A stretch of DNA of 64,000 nucleotides, taken from NCBI GenBank assembly GCA_041781135.1, contig JBHAZV010000006.1:8276-72275 (forward strand), read 5' to 3'. Each line of letters begins with the position of its first letter. The stretch's first letter is position 1. A model generated the notes under the pieces. That model worked only from the letters and a program-made list of their open reading frames with translations, did no database searches and had not been told where the DNA came from. The DNA is from Acidaminobacteraceae bacterium (lineage in GTDB: Bacteria > Bacillota > Clostridia > Peptostreptococcales > Acidaminobacteraceae). A program made the position numbers and the translations under genes. Positions 8,248-64,000 of the stretch are shown here, piece after piece.

Positions 8248-8412
8248 AAGTCCTCCAAATGTGATATAATTGGTTTGTCGTACACAGTCCATCCCGACTA
8301 TATTATAAACTCGGCGCATCGATTATTCAACATATGCCTTCAATAAATGAACAACTCGGACACAGGGCTGCAAGTGCGCGCAAAAATCCGCAAATATCTT
8401 AGGAGATCAATT

Positions 8413-9878: not shown

Positions 9879-10670
9879 CTAACTCAGCGCCACATCAAGC
9901 ATCATCATAAGAGCAAAACCCAGAGCATAGCTTATCGTTCCGACATTGGAATGACCGCCTTCCGCCATATCCGGAACAAGCTCCTCGACCACGACATAAA
10001 TCATCGCGCCTGCGGCAAAGCTCAGCAAATAAGGCAGCACAGGCACAATATAACCAGACAAAAGGATTGTCGCGACTGCCGCAACAGGCTCAAGCGCTCC
10101 CGAAAATACGCCAAGCCAAAACGATTTCATTTTGTTGCCGCCCGCAAGGCTAAGCGGCATCGAAACAATTGCGCCCTCAGGGAAATTCTGAAGCGCTATA
10201 CCTATCGAGAGCGAAAGCGCTCCCACTGCGGTGATGGAGGTTTCTCCGCTGAGCCACCCTGCGCATACGACGCCTACCGCCATGCCCTCCGGTATATTGT
10301 GAAGCGCCACTGCGAACACCATCATCATTGTCCTGCTCATACGGGATTTTGGCCCTTCAGCTTCTCCGCTGACTACATGTATATGCGGTATCACCATATC
10401 CAAAACAAGCAGAAAGAATATTCCGAGCATAAAACCCACAACTGCAGGAACAAATGCAAACTTCCCCATGCTTTCCGAATGGTCCATTGCAGGAATCAGC
10501 AGACTCCAAACGCTTGCAGCAGTCATAACACCTGCGGCAAACCCACTCAGAGATCTTCGGACCTTGTCTCCAAGGCCCTTTTTCAAAAAAAACACACCCA
10601 TCGAACCGAGCGATGTGCCCAAAAACGGCAGCAGCAACACCACTAATAATACAAAATCCTGTTCTTTCAT
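9879..10670 (-). CDS. zupT: ZIP-family divalent metal (zinc) transporter
   Basis: 263 aa, polytopic. Paired motifs HNIPEGMAVG and LQNFPEGA are typical of ZupT/ZIP. Confidence 0.8.
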   Translation of the reverse strand: MKEQDFVLLVVLLLPFLGTSLGSMGVFFLKKGLGDKVRRSLSGFAAGVMTAASVWSLLIPAMDHSESMGKFAFVPAVVGFMLGIFFLLVLDMVIPHIHVVSGEAEGPKSRMSRTMMMVFAVALHNIPEGMAVGVVCAGWLSGETSITAVGALSLSIGIALQNFPEGAIVSMPLSLAGGNKMKSFWLGVFSGALEPVAAVATILLSGYIVPVLPYLLSFAAGAMIYVVVEELVPDMAEGGHSNVGTISYALGFALMMMLDVALS

Positions 10671-10676
10671 ATATTC

Positions 10677-10705
10677 ATATAACTACGATTTCTCATAAAT
10701 GTCAA
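10677..10705 (-). promoter_or_regulatory. Promoter TTGACA-17-TTATAT placed 6 nt before the zupT ATG (leaderless geometry)
   Basis: -35 rc at 10700-10705, -10 rc at 10677-10682, then 6 nt (10671-10676), then ATG 10670. No SD is present. Confidence 0.55.
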
Positions 10706-20099: not shown

Positions 20100-20579
20100 C
20101 TAAAAAAGTAAATAATCGGCTTTAATAGCATCTATTTCGCGTTCTAACGCATCATTTGCCGCGTCAAAATCAAATCCCCTTCGCATCAGAGCCGCCAAAA
20201 TCCGCTGCCGCACCTTGTAATCGCGAGCATCCGCACCCTTTTCGATCTCTCTGCGAAGCCTTTGAGCTGCAATCTCTCGAATTGCAGAGGCTTCGCCGCA
20301 ATCCTGGGCGTCTGCAAAAACCTCATCAATAACATTCTTCGCTATGCCCTTTTGCCTCAAAAAAAATTCGAGCCTTCTCCTGCCGTACTTTTGAGAATTA
20401 AGCTCAACATAGTTCCTTGCATATCTTAAATCGCTAATAATGCCGCCTGCCGACAACTGCTCTAACACCCTGCGGATCTCCGGCTCGTCAAAACCTTTTT
20501 TTACAAGAGCTTCGCGGATTTTTTGCTCCGTATAGTCGCGCCTTGCGAGCAGCATCATTGCATATGCATCTGCCTTCAC
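20100..20579 (-). CDS. recX: Regulatory protein RecX
   Basis: 159-aa helical-repeat protein with RecX-like repeats (LLARRDYTEQKIREALVKKGF..., LRQKGI..., LMRRGFDFD). Confidence 0.7.
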   Translation of the reverse strand: MKADAYAMMLLARRDYTEQKIREALVKKGFDEPEIRRVLEQLSAGGIISDLRYARNYVELNSQKYGRRRLEFFLRQKGIAKNVIDEVFADAQDCGEASAIREIAAQRLRREIEKGADARDYKVRQRILAALMRRGFDFDAANDALEREIDAIKADYLLF

Positions 20580-21355
20580 TTATTTCTCCTGTACGATTTG
20601 TCGACAATGCTTATTTCTATGTAGTCGACCTCTATCAGGTTGTTGGAATCGCTGCCGTATGCGTGCATCAGGACTCTCACCGCGGGCTTGTCCATCGAAA
20701 ATGTCGTGAGTATCCTCTGCGACTGCCCCAGCTTGTATGTGAGGGCATTCGTGCGCGTGTCGTACGAAAACACTTCCTCGATCCATTCGCCATAGATGGG
20801 CTTAAAAATTTCATAATTCTGATTTATTTCCCAATCAGCCGCAAGCATGCGGAATACATCCTTGCCTGGTCGCCTCTCCTTGTGAATTAGATCATATGAA
20901 TACTCCACAAGCCCCATGCAGTCGCCGAGAGAACTAAACCAGCTGTTTCCCGTCCACGGCCTGGGTATGAGCTCCTCGTCATCAGTCTGATACATAGCCA
21001 TGCCACCAGCAAATATTCCCTCACCGCGAGTGATGCGTATTTTGCGCTTTATCGTTATGACGCTCCCCGGCGGAACATCTATAGGCTTTGAAACAAACAT
21101 AGGCATCCTGCCGCCGGAAGAACTGTAAAGTTCGAGATATCCATCCTCTATCCGAGAAAGTTCCGGAGCGCGCTCAAAGCTGCCAAAGCTGCTTACATGC
21201 CAAAAATCGTCAAGCTCTTCGCTTCCATTGAAATCGAAGCGATACACCTGATTCATTCTCTGGGAATCCGCTATCTGCAATATTGAAATTGCCATAATCG
21301 CAAGCAACGCCAACATCGCGCTAAAAAATATGAATTTTGTCCTCTTGCCGCTCAC
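20576..21355 (-). CDS. Hypothetical membrane-anchored protein
   Basis: 259 aa with an N-terminal TM (FIFFSAMLALLAIMAISIL). No motif recognised. 4-nt overlap with recX. GTG start. Confidence 0.5.
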   Translation of the reverse strand: MSGKRTKFIFFSAMLALLAIMAISILQIADSQRMNQVYRFDFNGSEELDDFWHVSSFGSFERAPELSRIEDGYLELYSSSGGRMPMFVSKPIDVPPGSVITIKRKIRITRGEGIFAGGMAMYQTDDEELIPRPWTGNSWFSSLGDCMGLVEYSYDLIHKERRPGKDVFRMLAADWEINQNYEIFKPIYGEWIEEVFSYDTRTNALTYKLGQSQRILTTFSMDKPAVRVLMHAYGSDSNNLIEVDYIEISIVDKSYRRNK

Positions 21356-21361
21356 CCTGCA

Positions 21362-21390
21362 AGTCTACCAAAAAAATGACTAAAAGTCAA
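21362..21390 (-). promoter_or_regulatory. Promoter TTGACT-17-TAGACT placed 6 nt before GTG 21355 (leaderless geometry)
   Basis: -35 rc at 21385-21390, -10 rc at 21362-21367, 6 nt at 21356-21361, start codon 21353-21355. No SD. Confidence 0.5.
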
Positions 21391-21464
21391 GAGCAGCGCG
21401 AAGCCGGAAATACTGGAATCACTGCGCTTTATCGTTTGTATACATTTTTTTACATTTGTTTTTA

Positions 21465-21493
21465 TTGCTAATTTAATCCGATTGCGCTAATAT
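21465..21493 (+). promoter_or_regulatory. Promoter TTGCTA-17-TAATAT placed 6 nt before the MATE ATG (leaderless geometry)
   Basis: -35 at 21465-21470, -10 at 21488-21493, 6 nt at 21494-21499, ATG 21500. No SD. Confidence 0.55.
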
Positions 21494-21499
21494 AGCCGT

Positions 21500-22855
21500 A
21501 TGAATTTAAGCATAAAAAACAACAGAGATTTTTACGATAAGATGCTGAGCATAGCTGTTCCTGTCACGATTTCAAACCTTATCTCATCCGCGCTTAGCCT
21601 CGTCGACAATATAATGATCGGTCAATTGGACGCACAGCACATATCCGCTACAGGACTGGCAAATCAAATTTCATTTATACTGATGCTCATTTTCTTCGGG
21701 ATAAACTCGGGAACTTGTATTTTCGTCGCTCAATACTGGGGAAATGGCGATAAATCGAGCGTAAAAAAAGTAATGGCAATAAGCTACCTCATATCTACCG
21801 CGCTTGCGGCGGTATTCTTTTTAATTTCGTTTTTCTTTACAGAAAGCATTATGAGCATGCTCACTCAGGACGCAAGAGTAGTAGAGCTCGGAGTACATTA
21901 CCTGCGCATTTTGGCTCCTTCCTTCCTACTGAGCGGAATAGGAGCTCCCATAATGTTCGCTACCCGCAGCGTAAACAGCGCAAAAATAGGGATGTACGCG
22001 AGCACCGCATCCATAGTTGTAAATGCCGTGCTCAACTATATCCTAATCTTCGGAAAACTGGGACTTCCGGCGCTCGGCATAAGCGGCGCTGCGATAGCGA
22101 CCGTAATAGCGCGAGTAGTAGAACTGAGCCTGCTCATATATCTTTCGCAAAAACTGACGCCTGTATTAAGCATTGGAATCAAAGACATTTTCAGTGTCCC
22201 CAAAGATCTGTTCAATAAGGTCGTAAAGAAAGCTCTGCCGGTAATTGCAAACGAGGGGTTATGGTCGCTCGGAATGGCTGCAATCACTGTTATTTACGCC
22301 AAAATATCCACCGAAGCATCCGCAGCCATATTTGTTGCCGATACTGTCCGAATGATATTCACAGTAATATCATTCGGAGTCGGAAACGCCGCCGCCGTAA
22401 TGCTCGGCAACGCATTGGGCAACGGAGAAATACAAAAGGCGATCGACTACAACAAAAAATTCCTCACAATAAACGTATTGCTCGGAATTATTATGGGCAC
22501 GTGCCTGTACCTCGTATCTAAATTTATTGTCACCACGTTCTATAATCTTGACGAATCGGCGAGCTCCATGGCTATTGCCGCGCTGCACATACTCGCATTC
22601 TCTCTGCCTATGAAATTCTATAATTTAGTCACCATCACGGGCACATTCAGAGCGGGCGGCGACACAGTTTTCTCGCTTATAATAGAAACTTTCGGCGTAT
22701 GGGGCGTAGGAATACCTATAACTTATTTTACCGGACTTGTGCTCGGGCTGCCGCTGCACTGGGTCGTGCTCGCCGCAAATGCCGACGAGCTGTTCAAAGT
22801 GCTGGCAGGGACTCCAAGAGTCCTCTCCAACAAATGGGCAAAAAGACTTGTATAG
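21500..22855 (+). CDS. MATE-family efflux transporter
   Basis: 451 aa with about 12 TM helices. N-terminus typical of MatE (MLSIAVPVTISNLISSALSLVDNIMIGQL). Confidence 0.85.
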   Translation: MNLSIKNNRDFYDKMLSIAVPVTISNLISSALSLVDNIMIGQLDAQHISATGLANQISFILMLIFFGINSGTCIFVAQYWGNGDKSSVKKVMAISYLISTALAAVFFLISFFFTESIMSMLTQDARVVELGVHYLRILAPSFLLSGIGAPIMFATRSVNSAKIGMYASTASIVVNAVLNYILIFGKLGLPALGISGAAIATVIARVVELSLLIYLSQKLTPVLSIGIKDIFSVPKDLFNKVVKKALPVIANEGLWSLGMAAITVIYAKISTEASAAIFVADTVRMIFTVISFGVGNAAAVMLGNALGNGEIQKAIDYNKKFLTINVLLGIIMGTCLYLVSKFIVTTFYNLDESASSMAIAALHILAFSLPMKFYNLVTITGTFRAGGDTVFSLIIETFGVWGVGIPITYFTGLVLGLPLHWVVLAANADELFKVLAGTPRVLSNKWAKRLV

Positions 22856-31678: not shown

Positions 31679-32563
31679 TCAAGCGCCGGAACTCTCGCGC
31701 GAGTTAAGAACTGAAACAGTTGCAGATATTATTATGATTATGCAGCCGATTATCTGAAAAGGCGAAACCGCGCTTCCAAGATAAAAGTAGCCAAATATCA
31801 ATGTAATAATCGGCATAAAATTCAAAAATACCGTGGATGAAGTTGCGCCGATATAATCCATTGCCTTGTTGTAAAAATAAAATCCGAGCACGGACGCCAT
31901 CACAGACAAAAAGATTATATGCGCCCATTGTTCAAATCCGACAAGCTGCCAGCTTGTATGTTCAAATGGCAGAAAGAATACAAAAAACGGAAGCGAAAAC
32001 AAAAATTGGTAGAATGTCAAATCGAGATACGGATAGTTCCCTATTAGCTTCTTTGTGGACATAATGTACACAACCCATGAAACTATCGCTAAAAGCATGT
32101 AGACATAGCCCACGGGGTTCGCGCCACCGGAGGAACTGCTGCCCCCAAAAACTATCAGGGCAACCCCTGCAAACGACGCCGCGACAGAGACAACATTCCA
32201 AATACCGAGCTTGTTTTTGTATATAAACGAATCCACAAGCATGGTTATTATCGGCATCGTAGCGACCATCAGCACCGAATCGTTTGCGCCGATATTAAGT
32301 ATTCCGATATTTTCAAAATAAAAATACGCAACGATGCCTATTCCTCCCGCGAGCAAAAAATATGGGATATGCTCGCGCTTTAGCTTCGCCGGACCTTTTT
32401 TTAGCTTCAGCAGTGCAAGCAGCGCCGCAGTTCCAATACAAAACCTGATCGCAACAATAATCATAGGTCCCATCGTCCGAAGCAAAAATTCCGTGCTCAC
32501 AAACGACACTCCCCACGCCAATGTCGGAATCAAAATATAGATAATACCAAGCAATAATCTCAT
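31679..32563 (-). CDS. EamA/DMT-family transporter
   Basis: 294 aa with 10 predicted TM helices in two EamA-like halves. Confidence 0.75.
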   Translation of the reverse strand: MRLLLGIIYILIPTLAWGVSFVSTEFLLRTMGPMIIVAIRFCIGTAALLALLKLKKGPAKLKREHIPYFLLAGGIGIVAYFYFENIGILNIGANDSVLMVATMPIITMLVDSFIYKNKLGIWNVVSVAASFAGVALIVFGGSSSSGGANPVGYVYMLLAIVSWVVYIMSTKKLIGNYPYLDLTFYQFLFSLPFFVFFLPFEHTSWQLVGFEQWAHIIFLSVMASVLGFYFYNKAMDYIGATSSTVFLNFMPIITLIFGYFYLGSAVSPFQIIGCIIIIISATVSVLNSRESSGA

Positions 32564-33987
32564 TTAATCACTGGAACGGTAAAGATAAACTCGGTGTAAT
32601 CGCCTGCACCGATCTCAAAATCCGCTCTTCCCCCAATTTGTTTTAATATATTCAAACATTTGTCAAAATTCCGAATGGTCTTTGATTCATCGTGTACAGC
32701 AGTTCCTACGATTATGTCATTGCTCCTGACATATCTTCCGTCTGTCATTTCGCTGATCTGCTGTTCGGAAATGCAGTCGCAATCTGTACGCACCCGTATT
32801 TTGACGGATTCATAAAACTGAACTGCCGATATCCAAACACTTATAAACTCCGATTTCCCTCTCCGGAATCTCTCGTTAGGCGCCTGCAGTGGGTGCATTA
32901 TAAGCGCTTCGACCACAGGCATAACGTTTGGCATAAATTTTAGAACTGCGTTCATTTCAGAATTGTTTACCGCCCAATCAAGCTCTATTCTATTAAGCTT
33001 TCTATTGCGTTCAAGCCCGTCCGAATTCAAATTATTTACAAAACCGTTTGTAACTTCAGTAAATAAAGTCTTTTTCGCCGCCAATAAAACTTCGTCATAA
33101 GGCGTTTGACTGTCAGCCCCGGCAAAGAACCTGTCTAAATCCGCCATAAGTTCCATTTTGAAAATATTAGCATCGCCGCCGTTTTCGATGCTGTTTCTGA
33201 GCCTTTCTCTGTCAGCGCGCGTGAGCAAAAGGCAGCGTTCTTCGTTGTACACTTCAAGAAAAGAAGGTATTGTCTTTTCTTTTTGTTCAAGTATAGCGCT
33301 CGTAAACTCGACATACGCGTTCGAAGTCGCCTTAAGATCCATGTCTGCAATATGAAGTACGAGCAGTCGCAATCTTCTGACAAATTCCATCCTGAGCTCG
33401 TCGACATCCGAAGATTTTTTTAAAGCCTCGCTTCGTGACTTGATAATGTATTCATCTATCCTGTCGAGCACCGAGGTCCTGTCGCTCTCGTATATACCGA
33501 CGAGGTCAGAGCGTTCTTCAAGCAGCAGGCTGAAAGGCGCCTCATCTACAAGGAATATATAGAGCAGACGGTTTACGACATCGTATGTGTTTTTTACGCT
33601 CCATCTTCTGCCGAGAAAATATATTCGGGTGGGCATACGCCTTACGGCATTCAGCGACTCCTGCCGAATATCTGAATTAAAAATTTCGTCCAAAATCGTG
33701 AGATGCGCGACACTGTTTGAAACAAAGTCGGTCCTGAACTGCTGCGCATCCGCATCTGTGACCGCGCCGAACAGCGGACTCACAACAAACTGATCGTTCA
33801 TTACAAATCCTATTTCCCACGCATTTTTGAGGGCATTTTCGATAATTCGAAGCGATTTTATGCTTTCTGCATCGAGCGCAGAGCCGGATGATTCGTCATC
33901 GCTTGAAGTATACACAAAATAATGCCCGATTGCCGCGAGCACAATGTACGAAATTATAAATATCAGAGCCACAAGCAGAAATTCCAT
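32560..33987 (-). CDS. Hypothetical protein with N-terminal TM helix
   Basis: 475 aa. No recognised motif. 4-nt overlap with the EamA gene. Confidence 0.45.
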   Translation of the reverse strand: MEFLLVALIFIISYIVLAAIGHYFVYTSSDDESSGSALDAESIKSLRIIENALKNAWEIGFVMNDQFVVSPLFGAVTDADAQQFRTDFVSNSVAHLTILDEIFNSDIRQESLNAVRRMPTRIYFLGRRWSVKNTYDVVNRLLYIFLVDEAPFSLLLEERSDLVGIYESDRTSVLDRIDEYIIKSRSEALKKSSDVDELRMEFVRRLRLLVLHIADMDLKATSNAYVEFTSAILEQKEKTIPSFLEVYNEERCLLLTRADRERLRNSIENGGDANIFKMELMADLDRFFAGADSQTPYDEVLLAAKKTLFTEVTNGFVNNLNSDGLERNRKLNRIELDWAVNNSEMNAVLKFMPNVMPVVEALIMHPLQAPNERFRRGKSEFISVWISAVQFYESVKIRVRTDCDCISEQQISEMTDGRYVRSNDIIVGTAVHDESKTIRNFDKCLNILKQIGGRADFEIGAGDYTEFIFTVPVIK

Positions 33988-33993
33988 GCACTG

Positions 33994-34002
33994 ATTTTAT
34001 CA
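33994..34002 (-). promoter_or_regulatory. Extended -10 (TGATAAAAT) placed 6 nt before ATG 33987 (leaderless geometry)
   Basis: rc of 33994-34002 is TGATAAAAT. Then 6 nt (33988-33993), then ATG. No SD. Confidence 0.5.
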
Positions 34003-46776: not shown

Positions 46777-48288
46777 CTAAGCCGCCAGTTCATACACAAA
46801 CCCGACAGGCTCGCCGTAATTATGATAAAAATCGTCGATAATCGGTTCGAGTGGATCGCCATACCAGTCGTGACCTTCCCTGAAGTAGTCAAAACGATGA
46901 TCATTTGATAATACATCGAGTTCCATATTAAAGTATTCGCTTACAGGCGCTAACGACTTAAAAATGCCATCGCGAAGCTCGTTTTTATTATCCCATGTAG
47001 AATCCACAACCATCCATTTCCCATTTACAAACACGACATTCCAGGCATGATTGTTGGTATCGACATCGAATTGATCGGTCATCGCATTGTGTCTGATCGG
47101 TCCCACCACTTTTGTAGCAGGAATGCCCTGAATTCTGCACATATCCGTCAGCAATATGGACATCCCCCAGCACTGAGTAAAGCGATGTAAGATTATTAGG
47201 GCGCTGGTATCAACGTTGAAACCTTCTTGCTCGCCCCCGCCGAGATCCTTGTAATCAAAGTTATAGTATACATGGCGAGCTATCCAGTCGTGCATTGCGC
47301 GGACCTTTTCATAATCGGTTGTAAGCCCTTTGCATATCTCATCTGACAGTTTCCTTATGGCAGTATACTCCTCCTGACTGAGCTGCGCTTTGCTGAGATA
47401 GTACTCAGGTGCAAGCAGAGAATTGTATACTTCATAATTGTTTTCCACAGCATCGGACTTCTTAAATACCAATTTGCCGTTCACTCTTTCAATATTAATA
47501 ACTCCGTCGTAAATGCTGTTAAAAATATACAAATCTTCATTCTCCGAATCGTTCGACCGCACATCTATGTACACCTTGTAGCTTCTATTGCCGTTTATAT
47601 CAAAATATCCACTGAACGACTTGTCTGATTGGAACTTATGATAACCAGAGTTGCCGTCATGCACGATTTCATTCTCTATGTACAATTCCTCAGTATCACT
47701 AAGGATATGCGGAATAACATACACATTAATATAATTGGCGTCGTAATATGAAAGCATGCCCTCGTAGTAAACTCGATTGCCTCTTATTACAAGTTTAAAA
47801 TAATTGTTTTGATCGAGACTAGTGATCAGATAATTATCATAAAGCAAACCCGGAATCAAAGGCTTTGAGCCATCCGAAGTCATTCCGACCGCTTGGATAT
47901 CGCCATCCCAGACGACTTTCACGCCAAATGCCTCGCTTACTGCGCGCAAAGGAACGAGAGTCCTCCCACCATTTATTACAGGAGCAACATCGATTTCGGC
48001 AGCTTTTCCGTTGATATACATCGTATTGCTACCAATTGCAAGCTTTACGTTAAGATCGTTGCCACCATCGGCAGTTATGCTTCTTGTATCGGCATCCCAG
48101 GTTACTTCTGCGCCTAATTTTTCAAATATTGCCCTCATCGGAACCATCGTCCTGCCATCGATGATCATCGGCTCGACATCAAATTCCATTTTTTTGCCGT
48201 TCATGTACACGTCAATTGCAAATATCGGAGCTGCAAGTACGACCAGCACTACCAAAATAACCGTGACCCTTAGCATTAACTTTTTCAT
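46777..48288 (-). CDS. Secreted protein: 2 copper-amine-oxidase-N-like (stalk) repeats + transglutaminase-like core
   Basis: ORF 46777..48384. ATG 48288 follows AGGGGG (signal MKKLMLRVTVILVVLVVLAAPIFA). Repeats GRTMVPMRAIFE and GRTLVPLRAVSE. Catalytic-like C/H/D in QCWGMS, NHAWNVV, VDSTWD. Confidence 0.7.
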   Translation of the reverse strand: MKKLMLRVTVILVVLVVLAAPIFAIDVYMNGKKMEFDVEPMIIDGRTMVPMRAIFEKLGAEVTWDADTRSITADGGNDLNVKLAIGSNTMYINGKAAEIDVAPVINGGRTLVPLRAVSEAFGVKVVWDGDIQAVGMTSDGSKPLIPGLLYDNYLITSLDQNNYFKLVIRGNRVYYEGMLSYYDANYINVYVIPHILSDTEELYIENEIVHDGNSGYHKFQSDKSFSGYFDINGNRSYKVYIDVRSNDSENEDLYIFNSIYDGVINIERVNGKLVFKKSDAVENNYEVYNSLLAPEYYLSKAQLSQEEYTAIRKLSDEICKGLTTDYEKVRAMHDWIARHVYYNFDYKDLGGGEQEGFNVDTSALIILHRFTQCWGMSILLTDMCRIQGIPATKVVGPIRHNAMTDQFDVDTNNHAWNVVFVNGKWMVVDSTWDNKNELRDGIFKSLAPVSEYFNMELDVLSNDHRFDYFREGHDWYGDPLEPIIDDFYHNYGEPVGFVYELAA

Positions 48289-63851: not shown

Positions 63852-63875
63852 ATTATACCAAAAACTTGGTATAAT
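63852..63875. promoter_or_regulatory. Perfect palindrome ATTATACCAA-N4-TTGGTATAAT, giving two back-to-back extended -10 elements (TGGTATAAT)
   Basis: The right arm serves the plus-strand response-regulator gene, with ATG 6 nt downstream. The left arm serves asnS on the minus strand, giving a leader of about 27 nt with an SD. Confidence 0.55.
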
Positions 63876-63881
63876 TAGAAT

Positions 63882-64000
63882 ATGGAAAAAATACTTATTG
63901 TCGACGATGAAGCAAAAATTCTGCGTATATTGAGGCTTCAGCTTGCTGCAGAGGGATATGACATACTTTCTGCAGAAAACGGCGCGGATGCCGTAGAAAT
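63882..64000 (+). CDS. Response regulator receiver domain (partial, continues beyond the window)
   Basis: [39 protein letters not shown] is a typical REC N-terminus. Confidence 0.8.

Follow-up and report, generated by a model that had tools for sequence, protein, structure and literature searches.

The 64,000-nucleotide stretch of DNA analysed here (hereafter, the window) comes from the genome of an Acidaminobacteraceae bacterium of the class Clostridia (GenBank assembly GCA_041781135.1, contig JBHAZV010000006.1, forward-strand positions 8,276 to 72,275). It contains five genes, several of them heading operons, in which a -10 promoter hexamer is separated from the start codon by exactly six nucleotides (N6), and these genes are the candidates for leaderless messenger RNAs (mRNAs) considered below. 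Two of them form a divergent pair. On the minus strand, the gene for a membrane-anchored protein of 259 amino acids (aa), which heads the recX operon, has its promoter and start at 21353..21390: TTGACT (21390-21385), a 17-nucleotide (nt) spacer with a TGg extension, TAGACT (21367-21362), the six letters tgcagg and the start codon GTG (21355-21353). On the plus strand, the MATE efflux gene (promoter and start 21465..21502) shows TTGCTA (21465-21470), a 17-nt spacer, TAATAT (21488-21493), agccgt and ATG (21500-21502). The third site, at 10668..10705 on the minus strand, belongs to a zupT-like ZIP transporter gene and reads TTGACA (10705-10700), a 17-nt spacer, the -10-like hexamer TTATAT (10682-10677), gaatat and ATG (10670-10668). 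The remaining two have extended -10 boxes. That of the operon comprising a 475-aa orphan protein and an EamA protein (33985..34002, minus strand) is TGaTAAAAT (34002-33994; -10 at 33999-33994), followed by cagtgc and ATG (33987-33985), and that of an OmpR-type response regulator (63867..63884, plus strand) is TGgTATAAT (63867-63875), followed by tagaat and ATG (63882-63884).

All five layouts had been proposed in an initial annotation of the window, and all are present letter for letter. The same annotation held that the five starts lack a Shine-Dalgarno (SD) sequence and that the other genes have one of the GGAGG type; SD matching across the window bears out both statements. No match of at least 4 nt to AGAAAGGAGGTGATC is found at a spacing of 3-11 nt before any of the five starts, and GGAGG-type sites precede most other genes of the window. 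Its description of the divergent pair as having two good sigma70 promoters fits the 259-aa gene, whose promoter is listed by a consensus promoter scan (9/12 matches plus the TG), and is too generous for the MATE gene, whose promoter falls below the threshold of that scan. Four of the five sites conform to TANNNT at N6, the exception being zupT.

The whole genome (G000 in the comparisons below) was used to ask how general this arrangement is. It amounts to 1.58 Mb in 53 contigs with 46% G+C, and about 1,294 genes were called with a simple, home-made caller based on a hexamer model and restricted to open reading frames (ORFs) of at least 80 aa. These were divided into roughly 496 operon heads and 738 internal operon genes. 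The position of TANNNT was scored relative to the 5'-most start, the distance d being the number of nucleotides between the end of the hexamer and that start. Among the operon heads, TANNNT occurs 42 times at d=6, as against 4-20 times (mean about 9) at spacings from 1 to 10. The extended form, TGnTANNNT, occurs 22 times at d=6 versus 0-3 times elsewhere (about 1.3 expected; Poisson P ~1e-19). Internal operon genes show no peak, with 13 occurrences at d=6, five of which carry the extension. A genome scan for TANNNT near starts, of the kind that the initial annotation had suggested, thus gives a sharp peak at d=6, and in operon heads only.

The same spacing emerges when gene calls are set aside. 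Counted directly in the genome, TGnTAWAWT-N6-ATG is found 29 times, compared with about 10.6 times at other spacings, and the same box followed by N6-GTG is found 14 times versus about 6; TTG (3) and CTG (4) are depleted at this position. Of 90 occurrences of TGnTANNNT-N6-RTG, 40 open an ORF of at least 100 aa; at control spacings in the same phase the number is about 8. In a looser genome-wide scan of the TG-extended class, 35 sites were observed where about 5 were expected, so that about 85% of them would be real. There is also a signal from the -35 region: sequences matching TTGACA in at least 5 of 6 positions peak 29 nt from starts (9 versus about 3), and operon heads with a non-extended -10 at d=6 and a -35 of at least 4/6 number 9, versus about 1.7-3.

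The extended -10 boxes that precede operon heads concentrate in distinct modes at d=6 and at d=15-20, with a tail to about 60, and are almost absent at d=0-5 and d=9-14. These separate modes indicate that the putative leaderless genes constitute a class of their own and are not the short end of a continuum. The cluster at d=15-20 corresponds to leaders of about 9-14 nt, which leave room for an SD only; examples in the window are tig (20049) and the gene at 48288. From the spacing of the extended -10 boxes, the 5' untranslated regions (UTRs) of this genome are predicted to be very short overall.

Two other accounts of the positional data were rejected. An apparent TANNNT peak at d=11, which might have represented a second promoter class, is produced by the TATGnT within the TRTG motif of these very leaderless-type promoters and by AT-rich sequence before SDs. 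Origin of the sites from a repeat or from contamination was also dismissed, as they differ in sequence and are spread over about 18 contigs.

The character of the promoter was studied with the 35 best sites, which were picked solely on the TG, TANNNT, the spacing, the ORF and the absence of an SD. At positions that played no part in the selection, the resulting logo is that of the Gram-positive promoter TRTGnTATAAT, with T at -17 in 26 of the 35, a purine at -16 in 28, A at -9 in 32 and A at -8 in 27. The -35 region of these sites holds a weak TTgA motif. A pyrimidine occupies -1 in 30 of the 35, as against 57% of SD-led genes (P = 6.5e-4). RNA polymerase prefers a pyrimidine at -1 and a purine at +1 of its start sites, and from this preference one would expect ATG and GTG to be enriched at the N6 position and TTG and CTG not to be. 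Eight of the 35 best leaderless-type sites (23%) start with GTG, versus 8% of SD-led starts, smpB being among the genes concerned, and TTG is absent from the class.

The window genes and the genome-wide signal were then compared with relatives. Orthologues of the MATE pump, the 259-aa protein and zupT in other members of the family have ordinary GGAGG or GAGG SDs, which points to the leaderless layout being derived. For the MATE gene, family relatives have GGAGG before the start, and GAGGG is found in G031, a genome of a neighbouring genus. The zupT orthologues start six codons earlier behind strong SDs, and that of the family member G032 is likewise SD-led. The 259-aa orthologue in G031 reads tttttttggTAAACT-N7-ATG. 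The response regulator has an orthologue in G001, a genome of the same genus, that is 66% identical and is preceded by TGcTATGAT-ttatgc-ATG.

To contrast lineages, TGNTAWAAT-N6-ATG and TGNTAWAAT-N9-ATG were counted in 40 relatives and in the genome itself. The genome has 25 matches at N6 and 8 at N9; G001 has 19 and 4, G031 has 11 and 2, and G010, a further member of the family, has 7 and 2. In nearly all other relatives the N6/N9 ratio is about 1. The mild enrichment in G015 (13 versus 6) was put down to chance, as nearly all of its matches open short ORFs only. In G001, 14 of the 19 N6 matches open ORFs with homologues in G000, and about 10 of these 14 orthologue pairs, including trkA, an ftsE-like gene, an ABC-F gene, polA and glmU, keep the -10-N6/7 arrangement before the same start while the six spacer letters differ. 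With protein identities of 32-87% between the members of the pairs, it is evidently the geometry that has been conserved and not the sequence. In G031, 9-10 of the 11 N6 matches open long ORFs, and cysS is of the leaderless type both there and in G000.

Among the relatives, the signal is thus seen only in G001, G031 and G010, which are small genomes of the family (1.3-1.8 Mb). Three other small genomes of the same family, G009, G032 and G033, show no leaderless signal in the N6/N9 counts, which suggests that genome reduction alone is not predictive. Loss of ribosomal protein S1 was considered as a cause and rejected: an rpsA-like gene with four domains is present in all 41 of the 41 genomes searched.

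Based upon these data, we propose, at a probability of roughly 78%, that sigma-A promoters abutting start codons give leaderless mRNAs in this organism. The housekeeping sigma-A (sigma-70 type) polymerase would bind a -10 that is in most cases of the extended type (TRTGnTATAAT), often with a poor -35, and would begin transcription on the first base of the start codon (A in ATG, G in GTG), which lies 7 nt beyond the final T of the hexamer. Such an mRNA would have neither 5' UTR nor SD, and the ribosome would bind its 5'-terminal start codon directly. All other genes would be translated through a GGAGG SD that pairs with the 16S ribosomal RNA, whose tail, GGATCACCTCCTTTC, is a canonical anti-SD. 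The leaderless minority would cover housekeeping functions, namely polA, glmU, cysS, prfC, smpB, tmk, ylqF, trkA and the ABC-F gene. It is from the geometry, the statistics, the restriction to operon heads, the conservation and the positions of the starts that we infer the point at which transcription would begin and the leaderless mode of translation. The suggestion in the initial annotation that two modes of initiation coexist fits well with the canonical anti-SD tail and the strong SDs of most other genes. Its further claim, that all five window mRNAs begin at the first base of the start codon, is supported in silico by the N6 peak, the logo and the conservation. As regards the individual genes, the case for leaderless expression is strong for the 259-aa gene, the 475-aa gene and the response regulator, and moderate for the MATE pump and zupT, for each of which we consider it somewhat better than an even chance. 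The first three carry the TG extension and fall in the class estimated to be about 85% real. The MATE pump, whose -35 matches at 4/6, belongs with the non-extended operon heads (9 versus about 1.7-3), and zupT with the sites that have a -35 at 29 nt from the start (9 versus about 3).

Several observations weigh against this proposal. The zupT hexamer, TTATAT, has no A at its second position (-11) and thus lies outside TANNNT. The MATE promoter matches the consensus at only 8 of 12 positions, has no TG extension and has TAA at -12. Non-extended boxes at d=6 are hardly in excess in the looser genome-wide scan (10 versus about 9). In view of the missing TG and the TAA at -12, the TTATAT and this small excess, neither the MATE site nor the zupT site is certain when taken singly. 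At -1 the 259-aa gene carries G in place of a pyrimidine, and its start codon is GTG. The 475-aa start is beyond a check by homology, the protein having no homologue among 30 relatives. Gene calls were crude and ab initio, which makes the percentages derived from them approximate. Lastly, the proposal is drawn from sequence, with which upstream promoters giving leadered transcripts without an SD are also compatible.

This last arrangement is the alternative that survives best, unlikely as we consider it. In it, transcription of at least the MATE and zupT genes would start further 5', the ribosome would use an AT-rich landing site of the standby type, and the -10 next to the start would be incidental. 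Some 108 operon heads lack any SD match and a further 66 have no more than a 4-mer; the N6 signature is present in only about 30 of these, from which it follows that other SD-independent starts exist in the genome. The weak hexamers of the MATE and zupT genes and the small excess of the non-extended class could be read in the same way. A landing site, however, predicts no peak at a single spacing, and neither the TRTGnTATAAT logo nor the Y(-1)/R(+1) pattern nor the depletion of TTG and CTG would be expected of it. For zupT in particular, the perfect TTGACA at the enriched distance of 29 nt speaks against this alternative.

Chance combined with an artefact of selection is a very improbable explanation. 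TANNNT is common in AT-rich intergenic DNA, and three of the five window hexamers have an in-frame stop (TAA or TAG) as their first triplet, at -12, a pattern that is favoured trivially if one picks whichever start comes first behind a stop. This effect can be seen in the genome-wide counts, where stop-type hexamers (TA[AG]NNT) number 24 at d=6, which is not above the 26 at the in-phase d=9 and only somewhat above the 15 at d=3. Non-stop hexamers (TA[TC]NNT), in contrast, number 34 at d=6 versus 5-8 at spacings 1-5 and 7. Together with the excess of extended boxes, the peak at N6 in the counts made without annotation, and the retention of the layout in orthologues that are only 32-87% identical, this refutes chance for the genome as a whole; it survives as an explanation for individual weak sites.

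Leaderless expression also requires that the starts be placed correctly, and here the evidence is largely favourable. For nine candidates outside the window (SmpB, PolA, the ABC-F protein, YlqF, GlmU, Tmk, TrkA, CysS and PrfC), NCBIfam equivalog profiles begin 1-10 residues from the called start. The Response_reg domain (Pfam) of the response regulator runs from residue 4, which corresponds to profile position 1, and an in-frame TAG at -6, two codons 5' of the ATG, makes an upstream start impossible. The MATE start lies within one codon of the starts of orthologues that are 47-48% identical, and its MatE domain extends from residue 21. For the 259-aa protein, initiation at any codon other than the GTG would forfeit the K/R-rich N-terminus and the transmembrane (TM) helix that 13 orthologues from the family also possess. 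ZupT begins six residues later than its orthologues with its first TM helix retained, and the next in-frame start would cut that helix. The rival idea that the starts are mis-called, with the real ones lying downstream behind their own SDs and the promoters giving short leaders, can appeal to the ab initio calls and to the 475-aa protein, for which there is no homologue to check against, and it is nevertheless hardly tenable, given that no SD of at least 5 nt precedes downstream in-frame starts near the five genes, that such starts would truncate the first TM helix of both the 259-aa protein and ZupT, and that the N-termini of the response regulator, the MATE pump and the nine profiled proteins align with those of their families.

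On the reading that the N6 sites give leaderless mRNAs, the size of the class can be estimated. The excess over background at d=6 is about 33 of the 496 operon heads, and the looser scan yields an excess of about 31 at d=6 and about 16 at d=7. We estimate 35-50 leaderless units, that is, approximately 7-10% of operon heads and 3% of genes. The initial annotation had counted five candidates among roughly a dozen operon heads. The window has in fact about 17, which makes the share about 29%; this is above the genome average, and the genome-wide figure is not the ~40% that the earlier count would imply.

Nor is the share as unexpected for a Firmicute as had been supposed. Zheng et al. (2011, BMC Genomics 12:361; PMC3160421) described "TA-led" genes, in which a Pribnow-like TANNNT signal with its first T about 12 nt 5' of the start replaces the SD, and interpreted them as having no 5' UTR. 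Of 209 Firmicutes, 56 were found to have leaderless genes of this kind, which made up 4.2% of genes on average (range 2.4-16.6%; PMC3160421), and the ~3% of genes estimated here falls within that range. The signal is the same, although in the present genome it is almost wholly the extended TRTGnTATAAT at a fixed N6, with a minor class at 7 nt, and it is restricted to a handful of lineages with small genomes within one family, in whose relatives the same genes are SD-led. Group C of GeneMarkS-2 (Lomsadze et al., bioRxiv 10.1101/193490) comprises genomes described by a dual model of leaderless first genes and SD-led others, such as those of Mycobacterium tuberculosis, Streptomyces and Deinococcus. 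It includes 36 of 1,064 Firmicutes, and 25-50% of operons are predicted to be leaderless in it (bioRxiv 10.1101/193490). At about 7-10%, the present genome lies below these values and would probably be classed in group A with a leaderless minority. Clostridioides difficile, like the present organism, belongs to the class Clostridia and uses sigma-A promoters. Its maps of transcription start sites (TSSs) contain 15 and 6 leaderless mRNAs among some 1,600+ TSSs, or about 1% or less, and its 5' UTRs are mostly 20-60 nt long with aGGAGg sites (PMC7438776; PMC8237595). The leaderless share predicted here is about ten times higher.

The mechanism itself is already well known; what we describe is a mode of expression that is uncommon in this phylum. 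The findings would add one more uncultured lineage of Clostridia in which a discrete, conserved leaderless mode stands beside an intact SD system, and in which that mode covers housekeeping genes that are SD-led in sister genera. Going further, and with somewhat less than even confidence, we suggest that a small clade of Clostridia with reduced genomes, comprising this genus and at least one neighbouring genus (represented by G031), has recently moved dozens of genes, polA, glmU, cysS, prfC and smpB among them, from SD-led to leaderless expression by means of a strict TRTGnTATAAT-N6-RTG module, while sister genera have kept GGAGG on the same genes. If so, the transition could be followed gene by gene in this clade, as a natural series from which to learn how and why the mode of initiation changes in bacteria. 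In practical terms, gene-calling programs that look for an SD will assign wrong starts to about 40-50 genes in this genome and in the sister species. The lack of a leader would also mean that operators for zupT, the MATE pump and the response regulator must sit on the promoter itself.

Some features of the genes themselves may be added. The 475-aa protein (32560-33987, minus strand), which has no Pfam match, possesses a single N-terminal TM helix, and its gene shares an ATGA overlap with the downstream EamA gene. The 259-aa protein (20576-21355, minus strand) belongs to no Pfam family; it appears to be specific to the Acidaminobacteraceae, being present in 13 of the 18 genomes from that family and absent from all 12 genomes of other families in the order. 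The gene 3' of the response regulator lies on the opposite strand, and consequently no histidine kinase follows the regulator. The TGGTATAAT of the response regulator and a second TGGTATAAT on the opposite strand are arranged back to back (63852-63884); the second one serves asnS, a gene that carries an AAGGAGG leader.

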